A stretch of DNA of 64,000 nucleotides, taken from positions 5,210,001-5,274,000 of the forward strand of contig OZ076409.1 in assembly GCA_964187785.1 (NCBI GenBank), in the 5' to 3' direction. The DNA is from Amphiscolops sp. MND2022. Its lineage: Eukaryota. This document shows positions 18,871 to 63,864 of the stretch, one piece after another. Within the stretch, counting starts at the first letter, position 1, and each line of letters opens with the position of its first letter. Under the pieces are notes generated by a model. That model ran no database searches. It was given only the letters and a program-made list of their open reading frames with translations, and was not told the origin of the DNA. The translations under genes were made by a program, and so were the position numbers.

Positions 18871-18873
18871 TAT

Positions 18874-19434
18874 TTATTGAACCTCGGGGCTTATATTTTC
18901 TTCGGGACTAATCTCATTTACCGCTTCAGCGCACTCAGTGAATTTAGTATTTACATTACACTCACCTCTTTCTACTGGCTGAGTAATTTTGTAACGTAGA
19001 GCAATTAGCCAATCACGTCCGATTATCGACTTTCCGCTGTTTGGTGCCACCAATACTCTTGCTTTAGATACGGTTACGCCGGCGACCTCTAGGCGTACGA
19101 ATTGGTATCCCAGCAATTCCAACGGTCTTTTGTTATAATCAACGTAACGCTCTTGGTCTATCATGTCTCTGATAACAACTTTCCTTTCACCGATGATCTT
19201 TTGCAAATCTCGTTTGGTAAAAATAGACACTGGGGAACCAGTATCAATAATGGCTTTAAAATAGTTTCCGCACATGGTTCCTTCCACAAAAACGGGTTTG
19301 CTGCCATTCCCATCGATTTGAAGTACTAATTGCTCTTCGTTATCGTCTGATGTGCTGCCGTCACTTTCTTCGATGTAGTTCACTCTTCGCATACCCTGCG
19401 TGTTGCTGTTTCTTGCATTCAGCCGTTTCATCAT
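18874..19434 (-). pseudogene. Aspartic protease region of gag-pol
   Basis: IIDTGSPVS and IIGRDWL motifs; in frame with pol across a single TAA at 18876-18874. Confidence 0.9.
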
Positions 19435-19475
19435 CTCTTTCTGACGGTGGGGGAACTTCTTATTGCAGCATTTTT

Positions 19476-20321
19476 CTAGATGCCCGCAATTTTACAAAAT
19501 TTACAACGATAATTTACAGCTGTACAATTCTTGATGTGGTCTGGAGTGAAGTTGGATTCCCCACATCTGAAGCATTCCCGCGAGTTTTGTGATTTTTCTA
19601 CAGCGTACACTGGTTCGGATTTCACATTTTTCGGGGTTTCTGTAGTTTGCAGGGTATATGACTTTTGCCGTTTCACCCCCTCCTCGAACGCAATTGCAAA
19701 CTCCAACGCCTGTTCTGGCTCACGGGGCTCGGTGCACAATTTTTCTTGTGTTTTCTTATTGTTCATATGTAATATAAACATATCCAGTACCAGAGTATTG
19801 GTTATTTCTCCGAAGTCGCACAAAGCTGCTAAGCCGTTCAGCGTGAGCCAGAATTGTTGGAGTGATTCCCCGGGTTGCTGCGCTCTTGAGAAAAATCTAT
19901 GTCGATCGAGGGTGCGGTTTCTTTTAACTTGAAAGCAGTCCGCCGCTAGTTGCATGAGTTCTCTCACTTTTAAATTCCACAGGGTTGTATGGGGATATTT
20001 ATCCTTGAATAATTTCCTTGAGGCTTCTCCAAGTGAAAGATACATAACACTAACAACCTTTTTGTTAGCAGGGTCTTCATCCATGTCCCCCAACAATGCG
20101 CGGGCCCTCGGGTTTTGCTCAGTTGCCTCACGGGTTAATTCCGAGATGGATATCGAAAACTTAGCCATGACGGCTACTTGGAATAGATCCACCCACTTGT
20201 CCCAGTCCATCGTGGGGGATGTATTGGCCTCATGCCAATGCCAGTACACAGGCAATCCAACTAGATGAGACATTGCAGTTGTTGAAAGGGATAATGATGA
20301 ATTTTCTGCTCGCAGCGCCAT
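19476..20321 (-). pseudogene. gag: gag with two Zn knuckles
   Basis: Retrotransposon gag motif (QQPGESLQQF), CFRCG..H..C knuckle; the second knuckle CKFCKIAG/HLEKCC is broken by a 1-nt frameshift near 19483. Confidence 0.9.
20305..20320 (-). promoter_or_regulatory. Primer-binding site, tRNA-Ser-like
   Basis: TGGCGCTGCGAGCAG directly after the 5' LTR; complementary to the ...CTGCTCGCAGCG-CCA type 3' end of animal tRNA-Ser. Confidence 0.75.
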
Positions 20322-20549
20322 GTTAACGTGAAGCGTTGTATGAAGAAACTAGAACTTGAATTGCAAAAGATATTGAGGAATGATATTGAATTGACTATTT
20401 CTGAATTGACGTATTCTGAAGGTTAATCTCTTTTGCACAAAGGCTCTCAGGCAAATGGCAAAGGCGTGAGAACTCTCAAGCCAGACAGTTAGCAGGTACT
20501 TGTACATATTTACAACCTATGTGTTTTCACACTTTACACGTCTATCACA
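20321..20549 (-). repeat. 5' LTR of the Mag-like element
   Basis: Matches 15264-15492. Confidence 0.95.
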
Positions 20550-28583: not shown

Positions 28584-28729
28584 AGTTTTTCATTTCAATA
28601 CATTTCATTTCAATACACTACCAGAAGAGCAAAGATACACTACACCAATGCAAAGCTAGAGAGCAGTTGTGTGTGCAGTGAGCGTTGTTTCAAATTATTA
28701 CGTAATAAGAGTTGAACTTTTTTTTGAAC

Positions 28730-29554
28730 ATGGCCTCTTGCGAAATCAAAAGCGCCATAGAAGCAATTGAGAATGCCGATTTAAAGCAAATTCTTACTGA
28801 AATCGTTACTAATCTTACCATCAAAGACGAGAAAATTAAATCACTGGAAAACAAGGTAGCTGATTTGGAGGCACGTGTGGACGAATGTGAAATCTATTCA
28901 TCAAAAGACTGTATTATAATGGAGAATTTACCAATAAAAAACTTCAACAATGGTAATGTACCCCCTCTCAGTCATCAGGTATGCGACTTTTTGAAATCCT
29001 ATATCAATTATGAGACCCATCCCAGTAGTTTTAAAGCTTGCCATCCTCTTGGGCCCTGGAAAAATGAAAAACATGCACCAGCAATTATTGTCAAGTTCGT
29101 GTACTTTGGAGAAAAAAATGAGATTTATGGCCGTAAATCTTGGTTATCAAGGTCATCAAACCCTCTTAATGGTCAAGCTATGTACTTCAAAGAGAGGCTC
29201 CCACCCAAACAGCGTGAAATCAAAAACAAAGCCGAAGAAGAAGGGTTGATAACAACTACATACAATTGCCAAGTAAAAGCTTTTACCAGAAGTTTCGATG
29301 GAAGATACAAAAGCGTCAAGTTGAATTCTGTGAAAGCGGTACATGATATCAAAGACATAGCTGTTAAAAAAGTCAAGCCATCTCAAAAGCAGCATGAAAA
29401 AATTGCAATGACGCCTGAACCATCCAAACTCGTGGAAAATCAAATGAAATCTTTATTGAAACGAATACGGTCGTCACCAGATGAGGAGGGCCTGCAATCC
29501 TTGAAAAACTTCTGTCGCGATAATGACATCAATGGACGAGGGACTGTAAATTGA
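28730..29554 (+). CDS. LINE ORF1 protein (coiled coil plus RRM-like domain)
   Basis: Heptad coiled coil (KIKSLENKVADLEARVDE), then EIYSSKDCIIMENLP, CHPL, PAIIVKFV and YFKERLP, typical of ORF1p. First ATG at 28730 (ORF track starts at TTG 28712). Confidence 0.85.
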   Translation: MASCEIKSAIEAIENADLKQILTEIVTNLTIKDEKIKSLENKVADLEARVDECEIYSSKDCIIMENLPIKNFNNGNVPPLSHQVCDFLKSYINYETHPSSFKACHPLGPWKNEKHAPAIIVKFVYFGEKNEIYGRKSWLSRSSNPLNGQAMYFKERLPPKQREIKNKAEEEGLITTTYNCQVKAFTRSFDGRYKSVKLNSVKAVHDIKDIAVKKVKPSQKQHEKIAMTPEPSKLVENQMKSLLKRIRSSPDEEGLQSLKNFCRDNDINGRGTVN

Positions 29555-29725
29555 TGAACTTGCAGTCAAATTTCTGAAAAGTTTCAAAAATGATAATGGA
29601 CAAATAGTTTGAAACCTAAACCTCACTACACTTAAAACATAAACTTCCTAAAGTTTGACTGCAAATACTTCCTTAATTCTCTGAACTTTGCGTTTTTCTT
29701 CAGTTTTTGTCAGCTTGCAATAAGG

Positions 29726-32566
29726 ATGGAATCTGTGGAAACTTTTAAAACCTCAGACATTTTTTACATGAACATACGTTCACTTAGGTGCTATCATGAC
29801 CAGTTAATTACTACTTTTGATGATTTTGAAGTAAAACCTGTGTTGATTTGCCTTTGTGAAACTTGGTTGACAGAAAATGACCCTATTGACCTTTATTGGC
29901 TCGACGACTACTCTGAAATTGAAACATCAAATAGACTGAACAAACTTGGTGGCGGTTTAGCTTTCTACGCGAGAGAAGACGTGAATTACACTACAACCAA
30001 ATGTAAATCTAATATTGAACACGTAATTGTCACAATCCATCGGGACGCTTTAGGTCCGCTAAATGTCTGCCTGATTTATAGACCACCAGATGCTAAAGCT
30101 GTCTTTTTTGATGAAATGGATTGTCTTCTAACTGATTTGTTTGAAATGAAAGGAGATTCCATACTCGTAGGAGACTTCAATATTGATGTTCTTGATAATC
30201 TAGACTATAAAACCAAAAAACTAGAAATTTGTTTGGAAGCATTCGGACTATCTGTGCAGAATGAAGAGCCTACTCGAGAGACTCTGTCAACTTCGAAATG
30301 CATTGACCTCTGCATATCAACTAAAGAAATAAAAGTTGAAACTCTCAAATACAAAATCAGTGACCACTATGCATTGAGATTTCCTATTTTATATGACACA
30401 AATCATTGCAACGATAATGATGTTATTCAGTTTCGTGATTTTTCCGGCTTTTCTAAAGAAGATCATCATTTGAAATTTTTGTTCTACATAGATCAAGCAC
30501 TTCGTAAATGTCAGTGTGACACAGTTGAAAGCAAATTAGAGTACCTCACCGGTGTTCTGAATTCAGCTTCCGAGAAGTATGCTCCACACAAAACTTTTGA
30601 TGCTACGAAGAAAAGATCAAATTGGGTAACAAACCATATCAAATCTTTGATTCATAAACGTGATAAAGCGCATGCCTCTTACGTTAAAGAGGCTAGCAAA
30701 AAGAACGAGTTAGTTTACAAGAAACTCCGTAACTCGGTCACCAGTGAAATTCGGAAAGCTAAACGATCCTATTATGACAAAAAAATCAAAAACGTGTGCA
30801 ATTCAAAAGAATTATTCAACTGTTTTAACCATTTTTGTGGGAAAGAAACCAAGAAACAAAGAGAAGTAGACGTTGAGAAATTTAATGATTTTTTTGTAAG
30901 TATTGGAAAAAAACTTGCAAACGAGTGTAGTGAATCCTTACCCAATGTTGACTTCGACGCGGACGGACCTGTTCAAACTTTCGCTCTCTTCGAGACAGAT
31001 GCATCTGAAGTTTACAGTATAATCAAACACCTAAAGAACAAAATTTCTTCTGGTCATGATGGCATCTCTAATAAACTTTTGAGGCTTGCTGCATCTTCAA
31101 TTAGTCAATTTTTAGCCAATATTTTCAATGAGTGTATAAATGATTCAAAGTTTCCTAAGTCTATGAAAATTGCGAAAGTTCTTCCGCTTTTAAAGAAAGG
31201 TGATTTTTCCTTACCGGATAATTATCGCCCTATTAGTCTTTTGACTTCGCTGAGCAAAATTTTTGAAAAACTCATTCACAAACGTATAACAAAATTTTTG
31301 GCGAAGCATAAACTACTAACTCCCAAACAATTCGGTTTTAGAGAAAATTTTTCTTGTGCACATGCAATTGCAGAAATCACTGAATTTATGAGAAAAACAA
31401 TTGACAAAAAACACTATGGCTTGGCAGCTTTCATTGATTTAAAAAAAGCCTTTGATACCGTTGATCACAATCTTCTTATTAAAAAACTAAATAGCTTTGG
31501 ACTACGCGGTCAAATTGAAAATTTGCTCAGAGATTACTTATCTGACAGAGAACAATTCGTATTTTCGGGTAATCAAAAGTCTTCATCGAGGAGCATTGAT
31601 TGTGGAGTTCCACAAGGTTCAATCTTGGGCCCACTCTTGTTTTTGATATACATAAATGATTTGCCTGAAACATGTAAGAATTCAAGCATGGTTCTATTTG
31701 CTGATGATACCGCAATTGTAACTTCTAAAAGCTGTAGAAATGTAACAAAAGATGTAGAATTGGATCTAAAAAGCATGAATCAATGGTTTTCGGTTAACAA
31801 AATGACTGTCAACGTATCTAAGTGTACAATTTTACCCTTTGGAAAAACAATAACCGCAACGGAAATTGACGAACTTGAGGGTTTAGCAGGCGAAATAGAC
31901 ATTGTAGATAAATTGAAGTACCTAGGCGTTAGTATCGACAAAAGATTGAATTTTCATAGCCATATAGCGAGTATCCAGAAAAGATTAGCTAAATTTAATG
32001 GTTTGGTCTACAAGGCACGTTATTGTTTTTCCCGGAAAGCTCTCTTAAGGTTTTATCAAGCATATGCAAAACCAATTATACTGTACGGTTTGCTCATATA
32101 CGGCGGTACAAGACATTCAGTGCTGAATGAGATTCTATTAATGCAAAAACGAATTATACGAACAATTTTCTTCAGAAAACGTAGCGATACAGTGTCTGAC
32201 TTGTTTATGAAACATAAAATAGAAACAGTTTTTGAACTTTACGTTGAAGAAATATTCAAAGAGACTCTATTTCAAATTTATGGTTTTTCGACAATTAGAT
32301 CATTGGATCTTCAAAATCAAGCTTTCCTACGGACAACTCGATCTCAAATTGCTGGACTAATTCGACCCCATTTTTCGCGAACTGTTACAGCCAAAAACTC
32401 ATTAGCCGGGAGAGTTACAAAATGTTACAACTTTTTAATGAAAAACGATCTATTGCCTAGTTTCGGAAACAATATTGACAAAATAATGTTAAAAAAGTTC
32501 ATAATGAATTTCAAAGAACTGTACATCCTTGACAGTGAAACAACTTTTAACCTCATTTTTGGTTAA
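29726..32566 (+). CDS. LINE ORF2: AP endonuclease plus reverse transcriptase (946 aa, uninterrupted)
   Basis: YMNIRSL, CETWL, GGG, IYRPP, GDFNID and SDHY (APE); NYRPISLL, QFGFR, DLKKAFDTV, GVPQGSILGP, FADD and KYLG (RT). Confidence 0.97.
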   Translation: MESVETFKTSDIFYMNIRSLRCYHDQLITTFDDFEVKPVLICLCETWLTENDPIDLYWLDDYSEIETSNRLNKLGGGLAFYAREDVNYTTTKCKSNIEHVIVTIHRDALGPLNVCLIYRPPDAKAVFFDEMDCLLTDLFEMKGDSILVGDFNIDVLDNLDYKTKKLEICLEAFGLSVQNEEPTRETLSTSKCIDLCISTKEIKVETLKYKISDHYALRFPILYDTNHCNDNDVIQFRDFSGFSKEDHHLKFLFYIDQALRKCQCDTVESKLEYLTGVLNSASEKYAPHKTFDATKKRSNWVTNHIKSLIHKRDKAHASYVKEASKKNELVYKKLRNSVTSEIRKAKRSYYDKKIKNVCNSKELFNCFNHFCGKETKKQREVDVEKFNDFFVSIGKKLANECSESLPNVDFDADGPVQTFALFETDASEVYSIIKHLKNKISSGHDGISNKLLRLAASSISQFLANIFNECINDSKFPKSMKIAKVLPLLKKGDFSLPDNYRPISLLTSLSKIFEKLIHKRITKFLAKHKLLTPKQFGFRENFSCAHAIAEITEFMRKTIDKKHYGLAAFIDLKKAFDTVDHNLLIKKLNSFGLRGQIENLLRDYLSDREQFVFSGNQKSSSRSIDCGVPQGSILGPLLFLIYINDLPETCKNSSMVLFADDTAIVTSKSCRNVTKDVELDLKSMNQWFSVNKMTVNVSKCTILPFGKTITATEIDELEGLAGEIDIVDKLKYLGVSIDKRLNFHSHIASIQKRLAKFNGLVYKARYCFSRKALLRFYQAYAKPIILYGLLIYGGTRHSVLNEILLMQKRIIRTIFFRKRSDTVSDLFMKHKIETVFELYVEEIFKETLFQIYGFSTIRSLDLQNQAFLRTTRSQIAGLIRPHFSRTVTAKNSLAGRVTKCYNFLMKNDLLPSFGNNIDKIMLKKFIMNFKELYILDSETTFNLIFG

Positions 32567-46343: not shown

Positions 46344-46896
46344 TCTTTTAAAGTTTTTCCATTTTGAACTAATTACTTTCCATTTTCTTCGCATGGATGA
46401 AGAGGTTTGTAAATTGAGACACTAAAAATCCAAGACAATTGTTCAGTCAGTAGTTAGGGGACTTCTCGAGGTCAAGCACTATTTGCATCTTTAGAAATTT
46501 CCCTTGATATCTGGAACCTTTTCCCGTTTTTCGTGATTGACGCTCCTCCGCAATTTGAATGACTTACTGTCACCTTTCTGTGGCCCAAGGACAATAAACT
46601 ATTCCCTATTAACGTGGAGGAATTAACGGGTCTCCTATAAATCAGGTGAAATTCGAGTTTGGTAGAAAACTCAATGATAAAGATGATAGCTGCAGCACAA
46701 GTTCAATTTTTTTTTCAAAAAAAATGAAAGTAGTGAAATTTTATAATTTTGTTGCTAGTGAGGGTTTTTCTTGCAGGGGACCGCCTATCTATCCATCGAT
46801 GAACGTCGATCATAAGGAAAAACGCTGTGCTTTTCTTTCCAAGGAAAAGAAATGGAGGTTAATTGAATTGGCTGACAAAGAAACTGATAGTCAAAA

Positions 46897-47609
46897 TGTA
46901 ACGTCAAGCTAACAGCTACATTCCAGAACCGGGACAATGCCCAGGTTGCCTTAACAAGAGACCAGTGTCTTACAACAACCTAAACATTAGTTTTTGGTCC
47001 CAAATGGTCTCTGTAAGGACTTTTCCAAGACGCCGAGGAGACTCCTCATATTAGAGCTCCGTGGCGACGTGCCGGCACACTCAAAGTCCGGACACGTCCC
47101 ACAAGCACGTAAAAACGGTCCTAAAGGCTTCCTGCGATCCTACATACCTCCGAGGTCTGAAAACAGGGGTTTAGTCAGAGCACATCTCAATTAAGTGAAT
47201 AACGTCTAAAATCAACACCTTCCAGGTTTACCATTAACAAACACCTGAAAATCTGCCAAAATACTACAAAACAGCACTGGGGAGGCATTCTGAACAGTTC
47301 TCAGCGAGTTTTGAGCTTTGGGTTCAACTCACGCAAAAATCGCACCTTCTTCTTCATCTCTTTTCCGGCTCATTCTTGCGATTTTCCGGTTTTGATGGCA
47401 CAACACTGGGGTATTGGCTAGTTTCTGCTTCTGAATATCTTCTTTCGCTGCTTTTCGGTCTTCTCTGTGGTCTGGGGGGGTCTTTTTTTGCGTTGTGTGT
47501 GCTTCCTTTTCGATTTCAACGACCTGCTAGGTCGGCCATTTTGATTCGCACACTTTTTGGGTATTCTTCGAATTTTTGAAATTTTTGACCTTGACTGGTG
47601 GACGTTACA
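46897..47609 (-). repeat. 3' LTR
   Basis: Matches 61263-61974; purine tract GGGGAGGA adjacent on the minus strand (47610-47617). Confidence 0.97.
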
Positions 47610-48867
47610 TCCTCCCCGGGCCGTAGTTTGTCGTCCTCGGCAAACGAGAGAGAATGATACATACCCAGCGGGTCTTTTAGCAACATTATTTCAATTTTTT
47701 TTTACTGCTCCAAATTTCTGCATCATTTTTACAGCACTTTTTTTTGACATTAGCACTTTTTCATCTTTTGAATTTAGCACTTTTTCAACATTCTAGAGGA
47801 TAAAAACATTTTCTCTAAAAGAAAACTCTTTCCACTCGTTTCAATCTAGTTAAAACTTCTTTTAAGGGTGGTAATGTACGCGGCATTCCAAGAATTGCAA
47901 GAAAGCATAGTTGCAGGAATTTCAATTGCAATTTTTTTTTTGTTTTTGGGCAGGGAGGCACCAAGTTAGGACCCACCTACCAGGTAGGGTATTACAGAAT
48001 GCACAATAGCACTTGAATCGGGTGTAATCAAAGCGTTGCAATGCCAAATGAACAGCTCCAATATAGAAACACTACAAATAACACGTCAAAGAAGATCACA
48101 ACGTGAGAGTCCATTCAGTCCATCGTGTTCTGATGTTTGTTTGGGATCCCTTTCCACTGCGCTCATTTTGAGTTCCAGGAATTCATTCATCGTCCACTCA
48201 AGTGTATGAAGTGCAGAACAAGCATTTCTGAAGCCAACAACTATTTGGCTGGAACGGATACGTCTATTTAGACGACAAATAAGTGATTGCCGCTGGAACC
48301 TGTTCCGTATGGGTTGCTTCGCACAAATCACAGGTTGAGTCAAACGTTTGGAGACTGGTGGTTCGAACACCACTAAATTTGACTTGATATTCGTCTCCTG
48401 TCATGCACGGCTTCACCATTCCATAGTTGATAACAGCAGTTGGTTGACGTTGATCTCCGGACAATTATATTGACTTCTTGCCGCTGTCAGTTGGATCCAC
48501 ATTGCTCGGACCGCTCTCTCAACCAAGTGAAAGATTAATGCATTGTGTACAAACAAGAAACGATAGCATACTGCGTTGGTGTGTAGCACCTGGGGTATAA
48601 TCTCAGGAAATTGTGGGGATGTAACTGGGATTTGTGATCTGATACCGCGTAGGTTCAGCGAAATAGGACACAACTGTAAAACAAGCAGCAGTTGTAGATT
48701 AAGACCTTTTTTGAATTGGAGCGAAATACAATATGATCAGACACAGACGAGACAGATAGTAAAACAATCCGTATTAAGAACCAGTTCGCCAATTAGTTAA
48801 AACGACACATAAGTTTAAAAGAAGGCAAGTGGCCTTTCGAATGACTATTTCTGAGTGCTACAGGCTT

Positions 48868-51800
48868 TCAATCAAGCTTGTGCTTTACGTGGCTAGGGTG
48901 TGCTTTGACTGATGCAATCGACACATACACCCTGTCATGGAGAACTATGTCAACGTCTGAGTCAATGAAGTGATCTCTCAACATTGAATACCAAGCTGGT
49001 AGTATGTTGATTGACCTTTCAGGATCATAGATAGGAAGGTGAACTCGGGTAATTTGAGCTTGGGCGAGCTTCTGCACCAGATCTGTCAGGCACAGATGTA
49101 GCACATCATGTAACATGGGATGTTTGTTGGAGGCTCTTGTGAATAGTAGAAACATGTCGTTATTCCATGGCGCATCTGGTGATTTGGCGAGGTGTATGGC
49201 TTTTCCTACGGCTGGTCGTAGTTTGAAAATCTCTTCTTGGCCATATTCCCTGATGACGTAACGCGCCATTGCTGAGTATGATAGAAGATCAGTCGGACAA
49301 CATATCACCACGGTACCACGTGCTTGCAGTATATCGGTTTCATCGTAAGATATCCATGGTAGATAGTTCGGCTTGACTTTCGGGTGCGTTGTCAACAGTT
49401 TTCCCGTGACGGTGCTTTGATTATCTTGACTTGGTTTGAGATGATCTAGAATGGCTTTACGGTCTTGCCACACTGTTCTGCGCAAAGGCCTGTCTCCCAA
49501 ATTCGTGCAAGACCAATCATGAACTACGGAGAGTGCTTCTAGCACGGTCACTGGGTTCTCAAACGTATACGTGTGTTTGTCCAGCAGGCGTATTTTGGCT
49601 TGGCGACAGAAAGTGATAGCTAGTAGCTGTAACCAATGTTGACTAAGGAATTTCCCGCGATAGATATCTGCTAGATGAAAACAAAGTGTGTCCTCGAACT
49701 CTACAAGTGTACGCAAGTTCTCTAAACAAATCAATAGAGTTCCTGGATTCACTGGTGATGTTTCGTCCAAGGAGGTGACCAATAGCCACCACCCAGCCGT
49801 TGGATGATACACATCTCCAGGGGGTGAGGTCACACCGTATTGTTGCCATAGCTTTTGCGCGGTGATGCAGCGTACCATTGCTACTTTCGTGTCTTCTGGC
49901 TCTATTTTTCCAAATATCATCGATGGTGGGAGCGTGGGAATGATAGCGGCCAACGTAAACTCTAATCCGCTCTTGTCGTGCCACGTCCACTCCTTGAACC
50001 GATAGGTGGGACAGTCTGAGGGCGGTGTTCCTTGCATGGCCTTTAGCGTGGTTTCCAATGGTGGGACCACACCTGGTCCAATGCTCGAGTACGTCTTTTC
50101 TATTGAAATTACAACATGATGTACTTGTGGAACATCCTGGTCCTTTGCGTGTATGGACCTGATTGTATGTTGTATATGGTCTTCGAATATCTCGGTGTCG
50201 GCTAAGTCAAGAGCAGGAGCGTCCACTCCCCGGGCCAATCGCTTGTCCGGTGTTCTCACTTCAACTAGGTTGACGCAACTACAGTTGCGGGAACCACAGG
50301 TTCCACACCTGTATCGTGGTGCTCTGTTACGTCGTAGCTGATAAGGTGGGGCTTGTGAAGGGGTTGGTTGCTCCGCTTCTCGTTGCTCTGGCGATATGCT
50401 TTCCGCTATGTTGGGTAATGTCATTACACGTTCCAAAGTTTGAGACTGAGCTCTGGCTCTTACTCGGCCTCTCGCTCGCGTGTAAGGTCTGTGCGCTCTT
50501 GTAAGTGTTCTGCTTGATGAAGTGGTACTTCCTCTTCTACGACCTGGAGGTCTGCCTCTTGGTCTGCCTCTTCTAGTTGCAGTTCTCCCTGATGAGGGTA
50601 ACGTTTCCATGCTTTGACAGGGTTCTTGAATTTCTCTGTCAGTTCCTTCTTGGGGTTCGGCTTCCTCGGCAAGTTCTAGTCCTACCGAGCTACCAGCTCG
50701 AGAACTGAACAGTGGAAAATTACTCAATGTATCGGTTAAAGCCGGGTTCAAAAGCAATGGTGCGGAGGTTCCTGACGGTGAAGGTACCAAGCTTGGTGCT
50801 GGTTCAGGTAAGACTTCCTCTTGATCGGAATACAGCGGTTCTAGGTCATCAATATCAGGATGAACCATTGGTTGCTGTGGTTCTTCAATGGGTTGATCCA
50901 TTGGTTCTCTGTCAGATTCCGACTCAGACGGATATCCAAAGTGACTGAATCGTCTACGTGGGATTCCTCGTTCCAGAGCGGACTGAGTACGTGTCTGAAT
51001 CGTGCGCGGTGGGACAGGCGCGGTTGGTTCCATTTCGAACGATGCCTCCGGCAGTTGTTCTGGAAGAAATGAGTCTCGTGATATATCTGACGTTATCTCT
51101 TCATTGCTTTCTTCCACGTATGGATCTGCGACGATGGCTACATTCTGGTCTAACCCGAAGGGTTGATGTGCTGCCCAATCCCATGGCGCTGGCACATGCT
51201 TCTTCAGACGCTCAAAATGAACCTTTTGACCTGTATCCAAAACGTACAATCTTCCCTCTTGTAACACATCCGTGACCTTGTGAGGTCCACGCCAGGCACG
51301 AAGAAGTTTGCGGGTACCGCCCTTGGGGATTATGTGGCAAAAAACCCAAACGGCATCACCCACGGCGTGAGCTTTTGCCTTCAAATGCCTGTCAAACTTC
51401 TGTTTTTGTCGTATTTGCGCCTGATGAGTGTTTCGGCGAACAAGCTCGTGGATTTCTTGTTGTCTGGCAAGTAGGTGCTCTACAAATTCTTCTTTTGATT
51501 CGAATTCTCGCGCTGCGAATTCTGGGTATATAAACGAGAGCGGAATGGATTTTTCTGCGCCATGTTGGAGCATATACGGGGAAAATCCGGTTGTTGCATG
51601 TCTAGTCGAATTGTAGGCACCCAAGACTCCGTCTATGTGCTCATCCCAGTCAAGCATTCTGCGAGACGTGTAGACTCGGAGCAAGGTCAGTAACGTTCGG
51701 TTCTGGCGTTCCACTAAACCGTTGCCTCTCGGATGAGCTGGAGTAGACGTCACCTTGGTTACTTGCGAGGCTTTCATCAATTCTTGAGCAATTTCGGCAG

Positions 51801-53403
51801 TGAAATTGGTGGCATTGTCCGACTGCATCCTGGCAGGAGTGCCATGTCTCGCGAACCATTTATTCAGGATGATCTTTGCAGTCGTCTGGGCGTCGTATTC
51901 ATCATGTGCACATGGGATTGCCTCTGCAAACTTGGTAAAATGGTCGATGATGACTAGCAATCCATTATTTCCTGACGTTGTCTTGCACAATTTCAAATGG
52001 TCAAATTGCACCAGGTCATTAAAATTGCTGCTGTTGATACTCTGTAGGGGGTAACAGGGATTCCCAGCGGGATGCTTCGTCTGTTGGCATGTTAAGCAAT
52101 GCTTAATATGATTGACGACATCACGCTTGATGCCTGGCCAAGTGTGGCGCTCTTGTATCCTCGCCAATACTTTGCCAACGCCTTGGTGTCCTGATTCATC
52201 ATGCGCTCTGTACAAGATTTCATGCTGGTAGAGCTGGGGCATGACAATCATACACGGTCGTACGTGCATCGCGCGTTGCTGCGGAATGTAATTGACACAT
52301 AAAATTTCATTTTGGTTCAAGAACAGTAGGTCTTTTTTCTGATGAAAGTACCGTTTGGCAAAGTCTTGCACATCCTCGGGGAACAAAGCGTCATCCAATG
52401 GCTCGTTCTTCATGAGCTTCTTCAGCGCTAGAAGATGAACATCCCTGTTTTGAGCTAGATGTAGATCCTTCAATCCACGCATTGTCGACTGATGCTCGTG
52501 AAGCTCAGTCCCAACTAGCCTAAGGACATCAGCTTGTTCTTGACACTGCATTGGCAATCTACGCAACGCTGGGTCGCGTTTGGTGGTGTCGAGACGTGCC
52601 GCTGGCACTTTGGTTGTTACACTAAGGATACAATTTGGTCTGTCGTTTTCGGTTGATGTCGGAGTGTTTTCCCATTGCACCTGTGGATACCACGGTATGG
52701 AGCTCAAAGACTGATCTGAGGTTAGATCCTCCTTTGGTGACTTTTTCAAAATGTACAGCACAGGGAGTTGTGCCCGAGCTTCGGGCGGAAGCTCCGGATG
52801 GTTTCGGATGAATTTTCCGTGTTTGTTAATATATGGCACAGTGGGGAGTTCTTCGTAGTCTTTCTGGGACATGAAGCTGAATCCCTTGCTCACTTCTGGT
52901 AGAGCTTCCACAATCTTCTCCCGATGCACGTAGTCATTGGTCCTTTTGCTAAGACCGTCTGCATTTCGGTGTTGCGTGCGTGGTCTGTGGATCGTCTTGA
53001 AGTGATATTGGTCGAGGCGCGCAATCCAGCGTCCAATCATGGCCTGATCCATTGAATATGTCTTCAGCCACGAGAGAGCCTGGTTGTCCACGCGCAGCGT
53101 GAATTCCCGACCTGCAAGGTAGGAATGAAACTTCTCGATAAAATAGAATACTGCATACATTTCCAGCTTCGGGGCGCCATAATTCATTTGTGTTCGAGTC
53201 AGTGACTTGCTGCCATAAACGATGGGACGAAGAATGGTTTTCCCATTGTATTGTTGTTCTTGGTGCAGTATGCCGGCTATAGCAAGTGCACTGGCATCTG
53301 TGTCCAAAACAAAACGTCCTTCTTCGTTTGGCGCTGCCAAAGCTGTGGCATCGGCTAATGCCTGTTTCACTGAGTCAAACGCTTCTTGATGTTTTTCTTT
53401 CCA
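48868..53403 (-). pseudogene. pol: Polyprotein C-terminal half: RNase H, integrase (HHCC, DDE, GPY/F), disordered linker, putative macrodomain(s)
   Basis: LDTDASA, KLEMYA, VDNQAL and HRNADGLS (RH); HDESGH..CLTC, FDH, QSDN, VER and WRGPHKV (INT); about 770 extra C-terminal aa. In frame with the upstream ORF across one TAG (53406-53404, F*WKEKHQEAF). Confidence 0.93.
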
Positions 53404-56400
53404 CTAGAAGTGTTGGTTCTTCCTTAACAACTCCTGCATAGGTTGCACCTTAGCAGCGTGAAAAGGAATGAAGTCCCGGTAGTAGTTCGCAAATCCGAGG
53501 AAGCTCTGAAGCTCTTCTTTATTTCTCGGGGGCATCCATTCTTTGATTTTGCTAACAGCAGCCGGGTCTGGTTTTATGCCTTCGGCTGAGACTACTCTTC
53601 CGAGGTATTTGGTTTCGGTGCGCATAAAATCACACTTCTCGGCTCGCATCTTGAAACCTGCCTCTCTGAGACATTCGAACACTTCTCTGATCCTCTCCAA
53701 GTGATCTTCAATAGTTTCGGTGGCAATTACTATGTCGTCAATGTATGCCATGACAACACTTCCATGGCGTTGTTGAATCTTCTGAAGAGCTCTGGTGATC
53801 GATCGCTGAAATGTGGCCGATGCATTGCATAGCCCAAAGGGCATGCGCCGCCATTCGAACAGGCCAAGTTCACACGCAAACGCGGTTTTTCTGCGATCAC
53901 GTTTCTTCAGTGGAATCTGCCAAAAGGCCCACGCTAAGTCGATGCTCGTGAATATTTTTGCATTCGCGATCCTTGAAAGACTTTCATCAATCCTGGGCAG
54001 TGGAAACGCGTCTTTCACTGTTACATCGTTCAGCGGGCGGAAGTCACAGCAAAAGCGAAGCTCGCCTGATTTCTTTTTCACCATGACAATCCCACTAGCC
54101 CACGGCGAGTAATAGGGTTGAATCAAACCTAGAGCTAACAAATTCTGCACTTCTTGGTCTGCTTTGGCTGCTTTGTCGGGAGACATGCGCCTTGCCCCTT
54201 CTCTGTGTGGTATAGCCTCCGGCTCTAGCTCTATGCGATGTTTCGCAATTTTGCATCGTCCTATGTCGGATTTATTTTTCATGAACAGGTCATCGTATTC
54301 ACTCAAAACGCTCGCTAATTTGTCTCTCGCCCCTTCCCCCCAAGAAGAAAGGACGGAAGAGAGGTCGGGGCCTGGGATCGGCTTCAGCAATAGTGGATCT
54401 GTCCTTTTGCGTTTTTCATTTTCCGATAGGCCCATTTCTGACGGCTCAGTTGAAGACAAAAAGTTCTGTGCAAAGGAACTAAACTCTGAACTCGTGTCCA
54501 AATCTAAGTCTCTGTGCACTTGATTCACAAATTCGGCTGAAAGCTTCGAAGCTTCACGACTGTCTTGAATGGGAACGGAGTTGAACACAAAATTGGTGAG
54601 CACCGCTTTCCCAACTACGGTTTGTTCCTTGATTCTTACCCCTTCTTTAGCAGTTTGGTTTCTTAGGGCTAAAAAAACTACACCGTCTTCTCCCACGGAA
54701 GTAAGTGTATCTTCTGAATCAAACAATGAGTTGGACCTAATGCTACATGGGTGCACCATTACGTTACGAAAATGAAACTCGTTGGGCTGCTGCGTTATGA
54801 TCTTCGCGCGCACAACTTTTCGTTCGAAAGGCCCTAAAGTAACCTCCTCGGCAGAAACAACGAATGATGGCTCTTGGTCACTGACCTCGTGAACTGCTTT
54901 GAAGATCCTAGGCGTTTCCGGGTCACGGATGGTTATTTTCATGGCAGCCAGGTCCACCAACACGTTGTATGTGCGCAAGAAGTTCCGACCCAGGAGAAAA
55001 TCCTCTGAACCAATGTGATCGGCTATGACTACAAAGTTGGTCTTCAGAGTATGTCCGCCAAGCTGAAAGCTTACGTCTTCGGCTATTCCAACGGTGGTGA
55101 TGGTCTTGCCATTAGCAGCGAAGAGTTCAAGATCGTACGGTGACAGGTTCAGTTCATGCTGGGGTGCAATTTTCTTGTACGCGCTCAATGAGAGGATGGA
55201 GACTCCCGAACCGGTGTCTATCATGCCGAAGAGTGGTATCGGCTTTTGCAAAGTAGTTCCGAATGCGACGACTAGCGAGGCTCGCTCATCAATCTGGGCC
55301 TCTCCTTGTGCATCCTGCACTCCGATGTTATAACAGCGCAGTTCTTGCCTGCCCAAGTACAGTCCCTGCGGGAAGTGTCCTTCCAGGACAACAATCGCGT
55401 CGAATTTCATGTCGACACCATCAACCGTGATTGCAATGGGGACTGGCGCGATTGTTTTGACCTTGTGTAGTTGGGCTAGCTTGGTCTCGTCATCTCTAGT
55501 AAAATGCGGTAAGGGTCTCGAAGCTATCGTGAGACTGGTATTGCGGCAAAGTTCCTCTTTTAGTTGTGCCAACGTGAGGTTTGGACGTGCTTTTTGTTCT
55601 GCTGATAATAGCAAGTGGATAGAAATTAAAGTCTCAGTACAATCAGGTGCTGGGGCTTCAAGCGTCGTCAAGATTTGTTTTTCACCGCAAGTCACAACCA
55701 CAGGACGTGAGGGGCCTCCTTCTTCTGAAGTTGAGATCACCCGTATTTGATCATCAGTATCAATAATGTCCGCGGAATTCGCGAAAGGGGCGTACCACGC
55801 CGCTTTCACTTGTTCTTCTGTTGCTGCATTCCCAGGCACCATGCATTCGGATGCAGTGTTGCCCGTGCAATCAAAAGTGACGCGTAGTGTGGGCGGTGCT
55901 TGTGCTGGTAGTGCCGCGGGCACAACGTCGTTATTCATGCCCTGAGAGTTAGAAGGACAAGACCATTCACAAGCTGGGTTCGTTCGACATGAAGTAACTA
56001 GTTGTTGCACTGATTTGCGTGCGCGATCTTTCAAAGGGCAATCGGCAATGAAATGTGACGGGTCGCCACAATTGAAACACGCTCTAGATGGCTTCGGTGG
56101 TTGCTGTCGAACAGCCACTGGCTGTGGAGGTAGCTGCCAATTAGGCGCTTGAGGCGCCGCTGCCAGTATCGGGTTTTGTTGTCTTGCAAGTAAAGGCTGT
56201 TGCTGTTGCTGAGGCGCTGGATAGTTCTCCGAGCGGATAGGGCCGCGCATGTGCAAGTATTGTTGTACCGTGAACCGTAGTGCTTCCACTGTTGGAGGAG
56301 TATCCACGTACTGTTCTTGTGCGTACATGAGTGCGAGATTTCGCTTCAACTCAAAGCTGCGTACCCCTTCGATGAACCTCTGCATGATTTCGTAGCGCCT

Positions 56401-57939: not shown

Positions 57940-58212
57940 CTAGGCATTTGACATGTTATCTGACATGACGTCGTATAAAAACATGTTCGCAATTATGTCA
58001 TCCGCTGCTATCTCAGCACGTGCACTAAGCCCAGACAACTCCTCTACCTCGCTTGCAAATGGATTCGTAACATGGAAGCTACTAGACTGCCTATTCGATT
58101 CATTCAAAGACTTCAGATGCTCAATCTCGCCTGAGTTCATGCTCGATGGACTGCTCGGACTACTGTTTCCTCTGGTAACCCAGCTTTTGAACAGGGCTTT
58201 GGCTTTTCTCAT
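57940..58212 (-). pseudogene. Probable true N-terminus of the polyprotein (90 aa)
   Basis: Same frame as the 57927 ORF (285 nt upstream), separated only by one TAG and 4 codons. Confidence 0.7.
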
Positions 58213-61200
58213 TACTCACTTCTTGCTTCTTTGTGTAAAGTCAAATACAAGGCAAACAAAATTTGGGAGTTTTGACGTACTCCTTCACTATTAAGCAAAT
58301 TAAACTATGGGACCACTACGCTCTGGGGCTTGCAGCTCGCAATTGCCTGCTATGTTCTAAGTCGAATGAAGCTGGCTTACAAACTACAGTCTCCAGATTA
58401 CATGTACTGGTGCTAATCACCACTAATCAGAACAAAAATGTTTGCTACCCCACTAACTGGAGATAGTTATCCTACGAAAGGTTAAAGATGAGTTTTTTTT
58501 AAAATTTTTTTTGAAGTACTTTAGAGGTTACTCACACTAAACTACGCTTTACCCAGCCACAGGCTATGCGGTTGGAATGAATAGAAAGGTTTTGGCACGC
58601 TAACAGAGCTTTATGGAGATTTATTCAAGAAATCTCCGCACTTTATTCTGTGAGCGCACTCTATGTTACTCGCACTGCCCTTTATGAGGAGAGTACAAGT
58701 AGGGTTACTACAAATAGGGAACTCGGGGATAGACCTTGGGGGTGAGTAGGTGCTAGGAGACTAACAAACAAGAGAGTTTTACTAATCTGATGATTACAAG
58801 ATCAATGGAGACACGGTTCTTCACACTTTCAGATGCTACTGTACTTAATGTACTTTGGCGAGACGCAGCGCGTCCTAAGTCTAAGTCTCGTGGGAAACTC
58901 CTAAATGCGTTCTGATTCTTACACTATGCTTCGCATTCGAAGTATGCGTGGCTACAACTGTCAGTTCGCACTTAGGTGACTCTGTTAGGTGACCAGAGGG
59001 TGGCTGTTAACAGAGAAAACACGATTTTGGTGTTTTTCGCTTCTACGTCTCGTTGACAATCTTTCCACGAACCCAAGATCTTAGGGTTGAGCTAGCTCTA
59101 TACTGATTGCCTCAACAAGACGTGCTATGGGTGCCTGGTGTAGAACTAGGGTCGTTGGAGCACTCACTTGCGACTATACCTACGAAAAATACGTAATTTT
59201 TCGCAAAATTTCTCAAAATCAGCAACTTTTTCGCCAATATGCACGCCTGGAACAGGTGGAAATCACTTCTAGAGCTAGTAGCGACCTGAAAATTTAACAC
59301 GGTATACTACTGTGGCCAAATCGTGGGAAAATCACCATCGATTGCGCTAAAATTAATTGCACGTGACTTGGGGTCGTTCAACAATGTTATTGCAAAATTT
59401 TACAATGTTGTGAAATTCACACAAGTCTGTCAAACTCGCCTTCTAGGCTTCCTAGCTACCCGAAATTTTGTATGCGAGCGTGAATTATGCCCACGTAACA
59501 GAAAAATAAGTTAGCAGGGAGCCCAGGTCAATATTCCGGAATCCGAGTCGACAAAACTATGATGTACCCTGTATGTCACTTTCAGGGGTTAAAATTCACA
59601 AAATTGTCAATTTCTCTAAGTTGGGCAGTAGCAAGCTGCTCAAAATGCACAAATCGTCGGGATCGAGTGCCGTATGCACGAAAATGCAAGAATTTTAGTG
59701 CTGGGATACCTGCAAGGTATTGCACTATGCTCAACTAAAATTCAATTTTTTCGACATTTCCATACGGTTTTTGAGCAAAACTGCGGCTAAGATTTCTCAA
59801 TCACTAGTAATGGTAGCGCTACGAAAATTACACCACTAACGTAACTTTTTGCGGTCTACACGATGGTGCAATCCGTTTTGGGCTACTCCTGCTAGGAGAG
59901 ATTTCGACCTGTCTTGGGTACACTACTCCAGTGTTCCGAAAATGTCGCAAAAATAACACGTTTTTGGCTATTTCTCGGCAACTACTGGTTGGAATCACTC
60001 GCGGTTTTCTGCGTTTGCAACGTTATGCTTTATACTAACAGAAAATAGGCAAGCGAAACCTGGCAGGTTCCAAATAAGGTCTCTCAAAATAAACTTCAAG
60101 TTACACCTTTGACACTCTGGGAACAATGTGAAAAGTACGTATTTTCCCTAGGAACTTTTTATTTCTTGGTTCCCAGATGTTCGGGATAGTTCTAAACGTA
60201 ACGTAATAAGGTGTAATAACTTTATTCACGGGACTGGGGTTGTTTCAATTATTAGTTTTGATGTTATAACTCTCAGGTCTATGGGGTCCTCTAGTCAGGT
60301 CTATGTATAACAAAAGAAAGTAAAGGGTTAAACTATCAATTTATATTGGGGAAGGGTGAAAAACGTCTTGGCAGTAGTGTTTTGTACCACCAAGCTCGGG
60401 AACAATGTTTTTGAGCAGCTCTGAAAGCTTTGGAACAAACGCTCAAGGCTTCGCCCTCACCACATTTGGTCTGTTAGGCCAATTTTGGGTCTTCACAAAC
60501 AAAAATCGCTAATTTTTTGTTTTCAAGTAAATTAGCGGGTTAAAAAATTTTGTTCCTAGCCTGATAGGTCTAGTGGAACGTTTTTATTGTATTCCCACTG
60601 GCCGTACTCTTTTCTACAAAATTTCGACTTTCAAAATCTGTAAAATCACTATTTGAGCCTTATTTTACATTATTTTTCAGGTTTTCGCGCTCAAATTCTC
60701 AATCAACTGGTTCAAACACCCTCAGGGTATTCTTTCCAGTTAATTTTAGTTGGAATAGGCCTGGGAATATGCTTTTTGGGCTTCTAAACTAAGAAAATAA
60801 GGAATTTCACCCGATTGTCGTGGGTATACTGCAATCACGGGGGTGACGGAGGTGCGATGACGCAGGGGTTCACCTACTGTCGTCAGCTAGCTGGGGCCTT
60901 CAGTGCTCGTCCTCCTGGTCCCCATACATTGCAATTAAGCTGAAACAAGGCTAGAAGACCCTTTAAAACACAATCCGGTGAAGCCGGATGGTTAATTTCG
61001 ACAATCAGAAACGGTATGGAAACGGTACTCTGTAATCACACGGTTATTTCTCATTCCAGACCCCGGAAACATGCAGGAAACACAGGAAAAACACTAGTAC
61101 AAGGCCCACAGGGCTAGCATAAGGCAATAAAAACAATCTAGGACTCACCAGAAGAATTTCCTAGATCCGAACCTAGCAGGGCCGGAAAGCAGGAAAAACT

Positions 61201-61228
61201 CCAATTATGGCGAAAAGATGGAAAAAAT

Positions 61229-61246
61229 GTCCCTTGTGGGGCGCCA
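61229..61246 (-). promoter_or_regulatory. Primer-binding site (tRNA-Lys-like), 16 nt from the LTR
   Basis: TGGCGCCCCACAAGGGAC resembles the TGGCGCCC...GGGAC Lys-type PBS. Confidence 0.6.
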
Positions 61247-61262
61247 TAAAAACTATCCTAGA

Positions 61263-61974
61263 TGTAACGTCAAGCTAACAGCTACATTCCAGAACCGGGA
61301 CAATGCCCAGGTTGCCTTAACAAGAGACCAGTGTCTTACAACAACCTAAACATTAGTTTTTGGTCCCAAATGGTCTCTGTAAGGACTTTTCCAAGACGCC
61401 GAGGAGACTCCTCATATTAGAGCTCCGTGGCGACGTGCCGGCACACTCAAAGTCCGGACACGTCCCACAAGCACGTAAAAACGGTCCTAAAGGCTTCCTG
61501 CGATCCTACATACCTCCGAGGTCTGAAAACAGGGGTTTAGTCAGAGCACATCTCAATTAAGTGAATAACGTCTAAAATCAACACCTTCCAGGTTTACCAT
61601 TAACAAACACCTGAAAATCTGCCAAAATACTACAAACCAGCACTGGGGAGGCATTCTGAACAGTTCTCAGCGAGTTTTGAGCTTTGGGTTCAACTCACGC
61701 AAAAATCGCACCTTCTTCTTCATCTCTTTTCCGGCTCATTCTTGCGATTTTCCGGTTTTGATGGCACAACACTGGGGTATTGGCTAGTTTCTGCTTCTGA
61801 ATATCTTCTTTCGCTGCTTTTCGGTCTTCTCTGTGGTCTGGGGGGTCTTTTTTTGCGTTGTGTGTGCTTCCTTTTCGATTTCAACGACCTGCTAGGTCGG
61901 CCATTTTGATTCGCACACTTTTTGGGTATTCTTCGAATTTTTGAAAATTTTGACCTTGACTGGTGGACGTTACA
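61263..61974 (-). repeat. 5' LTR
   Basis: Matches 46897-47609. Confidence 0.97.
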
Positions 61975-63864
61975 AAAGTATTTGGTAGGCGTTTTATCGG
62001 CAAATATTTCCAAGGCAAATACTTTTTATACCATTTGAGATTTTGAATTTTAAAAAATAATGAAATTAGGATCAAACCGTCCACAAAAAAATGGGACGAT
62101 TTTTTTTCGCTTTCATTTCCTTATGAGGAAAAAGATACTGACTCGGCCGAGTTTTTTTCACTTTTTACCAGGTTTCAAATTTTCACCCAATAGGAGAAGG
62201 TTTTGTCACGTAATTCAACGGCAAAAATAAATGCTTTAGGCAAGTTTGGAGGAGAAAATTTCGTGGAACTCATCAGCCACAAACTTGAACAATAAAGCAA
62301 ATGGCTCCAGGGAAAACATTTTCATAGAGAAATCATCAGCGTTTTCGATCGTTAGATCATTTTTTGTAAATTTTGTAGTGTACCGATTACGCTCGAGGGC
62401 TGAAAAATATTACAGGAATACAGAAAACGAAATTCAAACTTTTCCAGAGGTTGAAACATCATTTTTACCCTTTCACTGACATTTAGTTCGAGTAGAAAGG
62501 CTATCATGCCACTGTGTTGTGAAAAATTTACGCAATCCTTGTCCGAACTCGTTTGCAACGTTCTTCAACAAGTGGGGGTGGTTTTCTCTGAAAACGACGA
62601 GTTTCGATTCATTTTAATTTTTATCTTCAATTTTGAATTGCAAAGGAGAGATGCAATTTAGCCCCGAAATTGACTTCACGCATTTTCGTGCCGTCCCAAT
62701 GTTTGCTTTTTTGGTTATTCGGTATTCATCTTTTTTCCCACCCCTAGATTGTAGTGAAATTAACCCAAGACATTCCGTGGCGTTTTTCGCATTCGTGTAG
62801 CCGTCGCACAAAGAACACCTCGTATTGCAGTATTTTTCCGATTGTAGAAAATCTTAACCTTGTCCCAAGATCTTGCATATTCTTACATATTCCCGTTTAC
62901 TCTTGAAAGTCTTGATAAGATGTTGTTTATTCTTGCTTCACACAAACCTTCTGAAGTATTTGATGGAAATATTGGTAACAGTCGTATCAAGAGTGTAGAG
63001 TAAATCAATTTTGTTTACAATTACTTTGCTCTTGTTCGCTTTACAAGCTACACCATCATTCTTTGAAATGTTGGTTATTTGACAACCCAATGTACGGAAA
63101 TCCAGTACGTGATAGCTGGGTTGGTAGTTTGAACGTCTCCGACAAATTAGGTACACTGATCAAGCCGTACTTGACGTAGGTTTTTGTTTCTTTTCATTCA
63201 CCTTTGTTATCTTTTCTCTTGAAATTTTGGGCAAGATCTTACAAGATTGTACTTCATCTTGCGCTTTTGATAACCACCTGGCCAAAATTTTCACGAAGGG
63301 TTCACGAAAATGCAAAATTGTTATCAAGAGTTTCAAACAATTTCATACTGGGTTGCGGCTAAATCGTCTTGAGACCGGATCACTGTTTTTTGAGACCGGA
63401 TCCGAAATCGATCATTGATTTGAATTTTTCTCGTTTGTTTTACTTTCATCATGAATGGCTTTTAACGGTTGCCTCCGTCAAAGAACGTCAAGGAAGAGGG
63501 CCAACTTTTTTATTATGGCCATTGGTCTCCATATTTGAATCGTCGTCGATCTAGTTTTCCGTTGCGGTCGATTCTTCTCGTTAATGCTCGGGAAGACATT
63601 TCTACATACTTCACTGGAATGGAGAAGCTTCTCGCGGGTTTTTCTGCCTTCTGCCGGACTTTTTTGCAGATGCTGATGAGTACAGTTGTCTGTGCCAGAA
63701 ACCGTACAGCTTTTCGCCAGCTTTATGTTGCAAACTGGCTTTGCTTTCAGTACAAAAAATCTGGTCGCCATTACATTTGGAACGGAATGTGTCTTCTTCG
63801 TTTGCGACTGCAATCTTGATTGTTTCTTTTTTCTCCATGTGTGTATTTTTCTCCAACCCCGGCG

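Follow-up and report, generated by a model that had tools for sequence, protein, structure and literature searches.

A tandem pair of TARG1-related macrodomains C-terminal to the integrase in a Ty3/Gypsy retrotransposon of Amphiscolops sp. MND2022

Macrodomains are readers and erasers of ADP-ribose in cells and in RNA viruses, and the viral ones counter antiviral PARPs. In chromoviruses, the place C-terminal to the integrase is occupied by a chromodomain, a reader of chromatin marks. The analysed stretch of DNA (the window; 64,000 nucleotides, contig OZ076409.1 of assembly GCA_964187785.1, positions 5,210,001 to 5,274,000) from Amphiscolops sp. MND2022 contained a Ty3/Gypsy long terminal repeat (LTR) retrotransposon whose polyprotein carries, in that same place, two derived macrodomains (named domain A and domain B here) with a plausibly analogous role, although the folds of a chromodomain and a macrodomain are unrelated. 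The function favoured for this module, at a probability of about 0.45, is that of a non-canonical reader of an ADP-ribose-type mark that tethers the integrase.

The closest described protein is human TARG1/OARD1 (C6orf130; 4j5r, 4j5s, 2l8r), a free-standing cellular enzyme. According to the available text of two sources, hydrolysis by TARG1 depends on a Lys84/Asp125 dyad (PMC9411070, PMC7050489). As far as the available text of the first source goes, DarG retains the Lys only, SCO6735 has neither dyad residue yet is an active hydrolase, ADP-ribose is removed from nucleic acids by TARG1, DarG and SCO6735 alike, and the substrates within the DarG/SCO6735 class, whose catalytic residues are variable, include ADP-ribosylated DNA (PMC9411070). 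Both DarG and SCO6735 are bacterial, in toxin-antitoxin systems or stand-alone, whereas the domains of the element lie in tandem inside a retrotransposon polyprotein. The ALC1-like class includes readers as well as erasers, and in Zn-dependent macrodomains a metal site is found in place of the glycine-rich catalytic loop, as given in the available part of the second source (PMC7050489). For LTR retrotransposons, no published description of a macrodomain was found in a full-text literature search, which left subscription journals uncovered, and domain-architecture databases may list a reverse transcriptase (RT) or integrase together with Macro; within the same literature no paper was found that describes canonical TARG1-like macrodomains borne by Gypsy elements. 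An opinion piece from 2019 that deals with the accessory domains in retrotransposon polyproteins names, in its available text, the chromodomain and a DnaQ-like exonuclease and no macrodomain (PMC6338049). Fold and element type are each familiar; what is new here is their combination, together with the derived tandem form.

Two macrodomains behind the integrase

A preliminary description of this DNA, made from its letters, had noted a long polyprotein extension of ~770 aa past the integrase motif, ending in a globular segment. The extension was present, with a length of 805 aa after the G-P-H motif, and the strings quoted from it were found at residues 1162 (MIFGKI...), 1351 (ISYDETDILQ...) and 1485 (DIVLH) of the polyprotein sequence P0001, in which no Pfam family was found over residues 700-1511. 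The last 451 residues of the polyprotein (P0003, the tail) were modelled with AlphaFold on 43 aligned sequences, with a mean predicted local distance difference test score (pLDDT) of 80.5. The model contained two compact domains, residues 33-262 (domain A) and 288-433 (domain B), each mostly with pLDDT >90. The predicted TM-score (pTM) of the two-domain model was 0.58, so that the mutual orientation of the domains is uncertain.

Human TARG1 was the best structural match of both domains, with which it has in common a minimal fold of ~140 residues and collinear motifs, at an identity of ~15%. For domain B, the top Foldseek match in the PDB was TARG1 chain 4j5s_C (E 1.7e-9, TMt 0.83, root-mean-square deviation (rmsd) 2.3 Å), followed by DarG (5.4e-7) and Poa1p (1.7e-5), the two proteins that had been named beforehand as relatives. 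VIA-align, run on the Foldseek candidates, gave Z 17.9 for TARG1 4j5r_A (rmsd 2.0 Å, 137/141 residues, model residues 289-431), 15.5 for DarG and 12.8 for Poa1p. The TARG1 alignment spans 48931-49359, in close agreement with the 48928-49356 proposed for the C-terminal segment. At the level of profiles, hhalign aligned domain B with the canonical TARG1-like macrodomains of other Gypsy elements described below (E 2.3e-5, 76% probability, 131 columns), while the control alignment with host macrodomains of the MacroD type gave E 0.073. The ranks of both structures and profiles place domain B in the ALC1-like class (TARG1/DarG/Poa1p) and not with the MacroD type.

The segment upstream of domain B had been described as a more degenerate macro-like copy, and the models bear this out. 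Domain A has a macro-like core, preceded by a beta extension at the N-terminus and followed by two helices, and when folded alone it reached a pLDDT of 80.3 and a pTM of 0.77. TARG1 was again its top Foldseek match (E 1.1e-4, TMt 0.54-0.62). In a VIA-wide search of 48,161 chains, in which Foldseek was not involved, the core (model residues 98-216) matched TARG1 2lgr with Z 12.0 (rmsd 3.2 Å over 117 residues), then a Bacteroides macro-like protein (2afc, Z 11.7), DarG (11.2) and Poa1p (10.2), and all eight matches at Z of at least 8 were macro or macro-like folds. The aligned core covers 49576-49932, against 49575-49925 in the earlier proposal. The two domains were collinear motif by motif, as had been suggested (hhalign E 0.0017, 118 columns, 15% probability), with C-x-x-A-D-L, L-L-x-T, C-L-E-x-L and D-x-x-R common to both, and domain A also aligned with the canonical Gypsy-borne macrodomains (hhalign E 5.8e-4, 29% probability). 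At the first phosphate loop, ~9 residues are missing from domain A. Its top neighbours are the same as those of domain B, which gives weaker grounds for the ALC1-like class. A candidate third macrodomain in the spacer between RNase H and integrase was rejected, as hhalign gave only E 0.27 over 12 columns.

Viral macrodomains and the tandem macrodomains 1-2 of PARP14 were among the weaker structural matches. The macrodomains of alphavirus nsP3 and coronavirus nsp3 resemble those of the element in lying within the polyproteins of selfish replicators, but, as with those of PARP9 and PARP14, they are of MacroD-like or other classes, with Z not above ~12 against domain B, and the orientation of A to B does not match that in PARP14 (rmsd 16.7 Å over 414 columns).

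Searches by sequence gave less. With the whole-tail profile, the five best matches among PDB sequences were all TARG1, aligned end to end, at a non-significant E of ~0.1 (0.096); a phmmer search of PDB sequences with the tail found nothing relevant, and the narrower profiles A3 and A4 recovered no TARG1 chain there. The clusters nearest to the tail in a protein atlas were unnamed phage-derived proteins (0.91-0.92), and one cluster at 0.90, where 14% of the members carry Pfam Macro, is a weak lead. Taken together, it is close to certain that both domains have the macrodomain fold and are homologous to the TARG1 type.

Conservation, selection and the remodelled pocket

A word-indexed search with the tail found 22 long proteins, with tail identity down to ~40%, most of which had RT, RNase H or integrase Pfam domains. 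A HMMER scan of 1.84 billion representatives returned 271 proteins at E of at most 0.001, 71 of them at E of at most 1e-30 and mostly fragments. The entire 420-residue region was conserved with sharp motifs in the alignment of the relatives, to ~28-40% identity. In the genome itself, the tail gave 4,544 first-look candidates, and the 94 that were scored were all at least 88% identical. By hand count, 43 of these 94 copies lay in open frames of at least 2,990 aa; a stop inside the tail was seen in three copies and was lacking in 91.

Ratios of non-synonymous to synonymous substitution rates (dN/dS) were estimated by the Nei-Gojobori method, pairwise and not on a tree, over 10 pairs formed by the window copy and four copies of diverged subfamilies (L013-L016). 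The dN/dS was 0.06-0.12 in domain B (at dS 0.05-1.06), 0.06-0.11 in domain A, 0.00-0.09 in the RT, 0.00-0.21 in the integrase finger and core, 0.16-0.49 in the linker between integrase and macro module, and 0.13-0.62 in the N-terminal Gag. Within one pair of copies dS varied more than tenfold by region (window copy and L014: 0.01 at the integrase C-terminus, 1.0 in domain B), and these regional differences suggest recombination between subfamilies.

A sister family in the same genome has a tail ~40% identical and the same architecture of AT-hook, Cys knuckle and tandem macrodomains. It is abundant (e.g. C5:8856935-8857912): first-look candidates ran into the thousands, and many copies had open frames of 3,192-3,194 aa. 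The most distant relative, P0098, is at most 36% identical to anything in this genome, which indicates that the module exists elsewhere too.

There is very little doubt that the module is maintained as functional under strong purifying selection. A chance resemblance, or a decaying relic in a neutral C-terminal extension, could appeal to the two in-frame stops that break the window copy and to the marginal similarity to known macrodomains in direct searches. It is hardly credible in view of the low dN/dS at dS of up to 1.06, the retention of the tail with its motifs intact to 28-40% identity, the open frames of 43 and the stop-free tails of 91 of the 94 scored copies, and fold matches of Z 17.9 and Z 12.0.

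Residues of the pocket were counted in 35 representatives of the window family (<80% mutual identity, 30-98% identical to the window copy, drawn from 109 sequences). At the position of TARG1 Lys84, domain B has Arg in 29/35 and Lys in 1/35, and at that of Asp125 it has Ser (14/35) or Pro (13/35); in domain A the Lys84 position is Ser or Ala. The glycine-rich loops were also replaced, as the preliminary description had noted, and the TARG1 dyad is absent. The positions of A42-G43 are Ser (27/29) and Ala (26/29), Gly121 is replaced by Asp (33/34) and Gly123 by Glu (29/34), so that G-A-G became (Y/N/S)-S-A and G-C-G became D-P-E. The alignments made with the whole-tail profile and with hhalign concur at Lys84, Asp125 and the loop positions. 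Three marks of a TARG1-type hydrolase (Lys84, Asp125 and the Gly-rich diphosphate loops) are therefore missing from domain B.

New loop motifs, S-A...R-Y..R-E and D-P-E-R, were strongly conserved in domain B, and the newly conserved polar residues were Arg321, Arg325, Glu326, His395, Arg403, His429, Asp430 and Arg431. Model confidence within domain B is lowest at the D-P-E-R loop (pLDDT 68, residues 401-410). TARG1 Asp20 contacts adenine, and the Asp aligned to it (tail residue 297) was kept in 23 of the 25 representatives covering the position. Two further residues of TARG1 are retained, the Thr ahead of the catalytic position and a Pro shortly after it, and in the alignments the best-conserved positions of domain B cluster in the segments lining the TARG1 cleft. 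Judged by its defining residues, domain B is no TARG1-type enzyme, with a cleft that selection appears to preserve still.

The same residues bear on a second alternative, in which the macro fold was reused without ADP-ribose, as a platform for protein or nucleic acid like the coronavirus SUD, one that aids particle assembly or the recruitment of a host factor by the integrase complex. Both glycine-rich loops are replaced, with acidic side chains in the diphosphate loop, domain A is entirely without its first loop, Pfam Macro models recognise neither domain, and SUD-type macro-like chains (8ufm and 6yxj) were among the weaker matches of domain A (Z 7.1-7.5). Such reuse is nonetheless unlikely, since the best-conserved residues map to the ligand-cleft segments of TARG1, the Asp20-aligned Asp is kept, and both domains are mildly acidic (median isoelectric point (pI) 5.9-6.5), which is not suggestive of a general nucleic-acid-binding surface. 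For the same acidity, binding of nucleic acid by the macrodomains themselves was disfavoured.

Canonical macrodomains in other Gypsy families

The genome of the element (1.07 Gb) was searched with the Pfam Macro profile (PF01661; gathering cut-off 22 bits, which neither domain A nor domain B reaches). Three strong matches in short open frames of 136-226 aa were obtained, which we take to be host genes, together with 21 weak matches (25.5-29.6 bits), 20 of them within open frames of 317-1,925 aa. The four weak loci that were examined (L027-L030) were all polyproteins of other Gypsy elements, which share only 22-36% identity with the window element in RT and integrase, so that they represent distinct lineages. 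The macrodomain follows the integrase and a long linker in L027 (C12:44815000-44824999; TARG1 E 3.4e-27) and L030 (C8:61674000-61683999), lies between protease and RT in L028 (C1:2909000-2918999; TARG1 E 5.1e-26) and lies between RNase H and integrase in L029 (C2:8419500-8429499; TARG1 E 4.7e-20). Domains of this type carry the Lys/Asp dyad and are single, not tandem. They match TARG1 directly (E 3.4e-27 to 4.7e-20) and some reach the Pfam Macro cut-off, unlike domains A and B. L027 and L030 resemble the window element in the C-terminal position past integrase and linker, and neither the RGRP motif nor the Cys knuckle was visible in their tails. L027 additionally had a weak dUTPase match (E 0.0029).

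A database search with a profile of the canonical macrodomains returned 129 proteins, and the following counts were made by hand from the 120 that were listed. About 70 had Gypsy-type Pfam domains and one had a Copia-type RT (P0356); the few records with names were from one beetle, one copepod, two aphids and three cypriniform fishes. Polyproteins of the canonical type in other animals include those of cyprinid and loach fishes, a beetle and aphids. In the canonical Gypsy-borne and related domains, Lys was kept in 114/120, Asp in 114/117 and both in 109/117. The listed proteins also held six fusions with a DNA ligase (P0334, P0338, P0340, P0342, P0348 and P0350), three of which also had a PARP-type zinc finger, one record being from a copepod, and one protein with a viral methyltransferase domain (P0373).

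These families are the ground for the main rival explanation, in which domain B would be an ADP-ribosylhydrolase of altered mechanism that serves counter-defence, stripping host PARP-type marks from element proteins or from RNA/cDNA ends, with domain A as a regulatory or substrate-binding partner. Canonical dyad-bearing domains occur in other Gypsy families at three positions in Pol and also in other animals, and it can be argued from both that the enzyme activity itself is selected in Gypsy elements. Activity without the Lys/Asp dyad has a precedent in SCO6735 (PMC9411070, available text), and a metal site replacing the glycine-rich loop has one in the Zn-macrodomains (PMC7050489, available text). 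Among the top-conserved residues of domain B are His395, Asp400, Glu402, His429 and Asp430, which are of types that commonly bind metal or act in acid-base catalysis and which lie close to where neighbouring strands have their C-terminal ends. This explanation is possible but doubtful: an Arg at the Lys84 position is incapable of the proposed Schiff-base intermediate, Asp125 is gone and so are the glycines of both phosphate loops, the metal site is deduced from residue types alone, and the D-P-E-R loop is modelled at low confidence.

Element anatomy, insertion sites and proposed function

The element is a complete, young and recently active Ty3/Gypsy LTR retrotransposon of ~15.1 kb and high copy number, on the minus strand of the window (Table 1). 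Two LTRs with TG...CA ends, a primer-binding site, a polypurine tract, the order Gag, protease, RT, RNase H and integrase, and a target-site duplication were all present, and the LTR pair was 99.58% identical over 714 aligned bases (blastn of the element ends). One Gypsy polyprotein frame spans 57939->48871 on the minus strand, with a single internal TAG interrupting it in the window copy. No chromodomain was among the Pfam matches of the polyprotein at E of at most 0.1, so the element does not count as a chromovirus; the macro module occupies the place that the chromodomain has there.

Table 1. Features of the Ty3/Gypsy element, in window positions (P0001, polyprotein residues; tail, residues of P0003)
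Feature	Position	Strand	Basis
Target-site duplication, 3 bp, perfect in the window copy	46894-46896, partner 61975-61977		Flanks read
3' LTR, 713 bp, TG...CA ends, short terminal inverted repeat	46897-47609	-	blastn, termini read
Polypurine tract, adjoining the 3' LTR on its upstream side (element strand)	47610-47617	-	Sequence read
Polyprotein stop, TGA	48868-48870	-	
Macrodomain B (tail 289-431; P0001 1349-1491)	48931-49359	-	Model, Foldseek, VIA, hhalign
Domain A, whole folded unit (tail 33-262)	49438-50127	-	AlphaFold models
Domain A, macro-like core (tail 98-216)	49576-49932	-	VIA-wide, Foldseek, hhalign
Pro/Arg/Glu/Ser-rich linker, integrase to macro module (P0001 761-1092)	50128-51123	-	Composition
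Cys knuckle C-x2-C-x4-C-x-C, conserved (P0001 1031-1043)	50275-50313	-	
AT-hook-like Arg-Gly-Arg-Pro repeat (P0001 944-957)	50533-50574	-	
Integrase G-P-H motif (P0001 706-708)	51280-51288	-	
Integrase catalytic core	51601-52020	-	Pfam PF00665, 1.2e-7
Integrase H2C2 zinc finger	52072-52239	-	Pfam PF17921, 5.7e-17
RNase H	53005-53403	-	Pfam PF17919 and PF17917
In-frame TAG splitting the polyprotein of the window copy; position open in other copies	53404-53406	-	
RT	53599-54081	-	Pfam
Aspartic protease	54925-55287	-	Pfam
Gag zinc knuckle (zf-CCHC)	56035-56085	-	Pfam
Second in-frame TAG near the frame start; 91 more codons upstream at 57943-58215	57940-57942	-	
18-mer similar to a primer-binding site, set 16 nt downstream from the 5' LTR and not abutting it	61229-61246	-	Sequence read
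5' LTR, TG...CA ends	61263-61974	-	

The 18-mer near the 5' LTR is a candidate primer-binding site, with a likeness to the tRNA-Lys type. An unusually long leader of ~3 kb (58216-61262) lies between the 5' LTR and the long frame, in which no minus-strand open reading frame of at least 70 aa and no tandem repeat was found. From the polyprotein stop to the polypurine tract, ~1.25 kb (47618-48867) is non-coding, with a 24-bp tandem repeat at 47742-47787. The window also contained a second Gypsy element (15889-20348, minus strand) with protease, RT, RNase H and integrase and without a long tail, and a long interspersed nuclear element with endonuclease and RT (28709-32566, plus strand).

The linker measures ~330 residues, with pLDDT <50 over the modelled stretch. 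Its Cys knuckle was present in 76 related proteins, and an RGRP-type motif upstream of the knuckle was present in 60 of the 62 relatives covering the region; we take the Arg-Gly-Arg-Pro repeat to be an AT-hook core. Insertion sites were read in 20 further copies, of which 17 had both ends and the remaining three only one end within the 1-kb stretches, giving 18 sites with the window copy. A perfect 3-bp target-site duplication was found in 16 of the 18, including the window copy, and 40/48 bases of the duplications were A or T by hand count, as against 62% A+T in the window. Target-site duplications of Gypsy elements are usually 4-6 bp, so those of this family are shorter.

For the favoured reader function, the origin would be a TARG1-type ADP-ribosylhydrolase domain like the canonical ones still carried by other Gypsy families. 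Duplication and remodelling would have followed in this lineage, with Lys changed to Arg, Asp to Ser or Pro, both loops swapped and the first loop of domain A lost. We infer that domain B would then serve, without catalysis, as a pseudo-enzyme reader of an ADP-ribose-type mark on chromatin, a PARP or DNA ends, that the AT-hooks of the linker may hold AT-rich DNA, and that the macro module may tether the integrase-cDNA complex at the integration site, in the position of the chromoviral chromodomain. In favour of such a tether are the place of the module after the integrase, the RGRP motifs and Cys knuckle of the linker, the AT-rich target-site duplications and the presence of readers in the ALC1-like class. 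In its widest form, animal Ty3/Gypsy elements would have repeatedly captured TARG1-type hydrolases as a counter-defence to host ADP-ribosylation of proteins and of RNA/cDNA ends, and in this family the captured domain would have been duplicated into a tandem pseudo-enzyme reader that, with the AT-hooks, steers integration to PARP-marked chromatin or DNA ends. That whole chain of events is offered as a speculative scenario and is rather improbable as it stands.

Several results weigh against the reader function. No Pfam Macro match at E of at most 10 was obtained in the tail, the tail halves or 28 domain B relatives, and the narrower domain B profile recovered no TARG1 chain among PDB sequences. 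Where the loops had glycine they now have acidic residues, and diphosphate binding could be lost completely as a result, which would favour a ligand unrelated to ADP-ribose. Beyond AT-richness, no strong target-site specificity or motif was seen among the 18 copies. Other Gypsy families have a macrodomain in the protease-RT or the RNase H-integrase interval. Macrodomains thus benefit Gypsy elements without attachment to the integrase, an argument for an origin, and perhaps a function, as a counter-defence enzyme. Furthermore, as SCO6735 is active without the dyad (PMC9411070, available text), loss of the dyad is no proof of lost catalysis.

Annotation of transposable elements based on Pfam misses the macrodomains of the window family completely. 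ADP-ribosylated nucleic acids are substrates of the TARG1/DarG class, and exposed RNA and DNA ends occur in the replication of retroelements. Canonical and derived versions within one genome form a natural experiment in which the two are directly comparable. The widespread TARG1-type macrodomains in Gypsy elements, together with the selected tandem pair, point to a conflict between retrotransposition and ADP-ribosylation, or a dependency of one on the other, that has yet to be studied. If true, the scenario of capture followed by conversion to a reader would represent a new class of integrase-targeting module and the retrotransposon counterpart of the arms race between RNA-virus macrodomains and PARPs.

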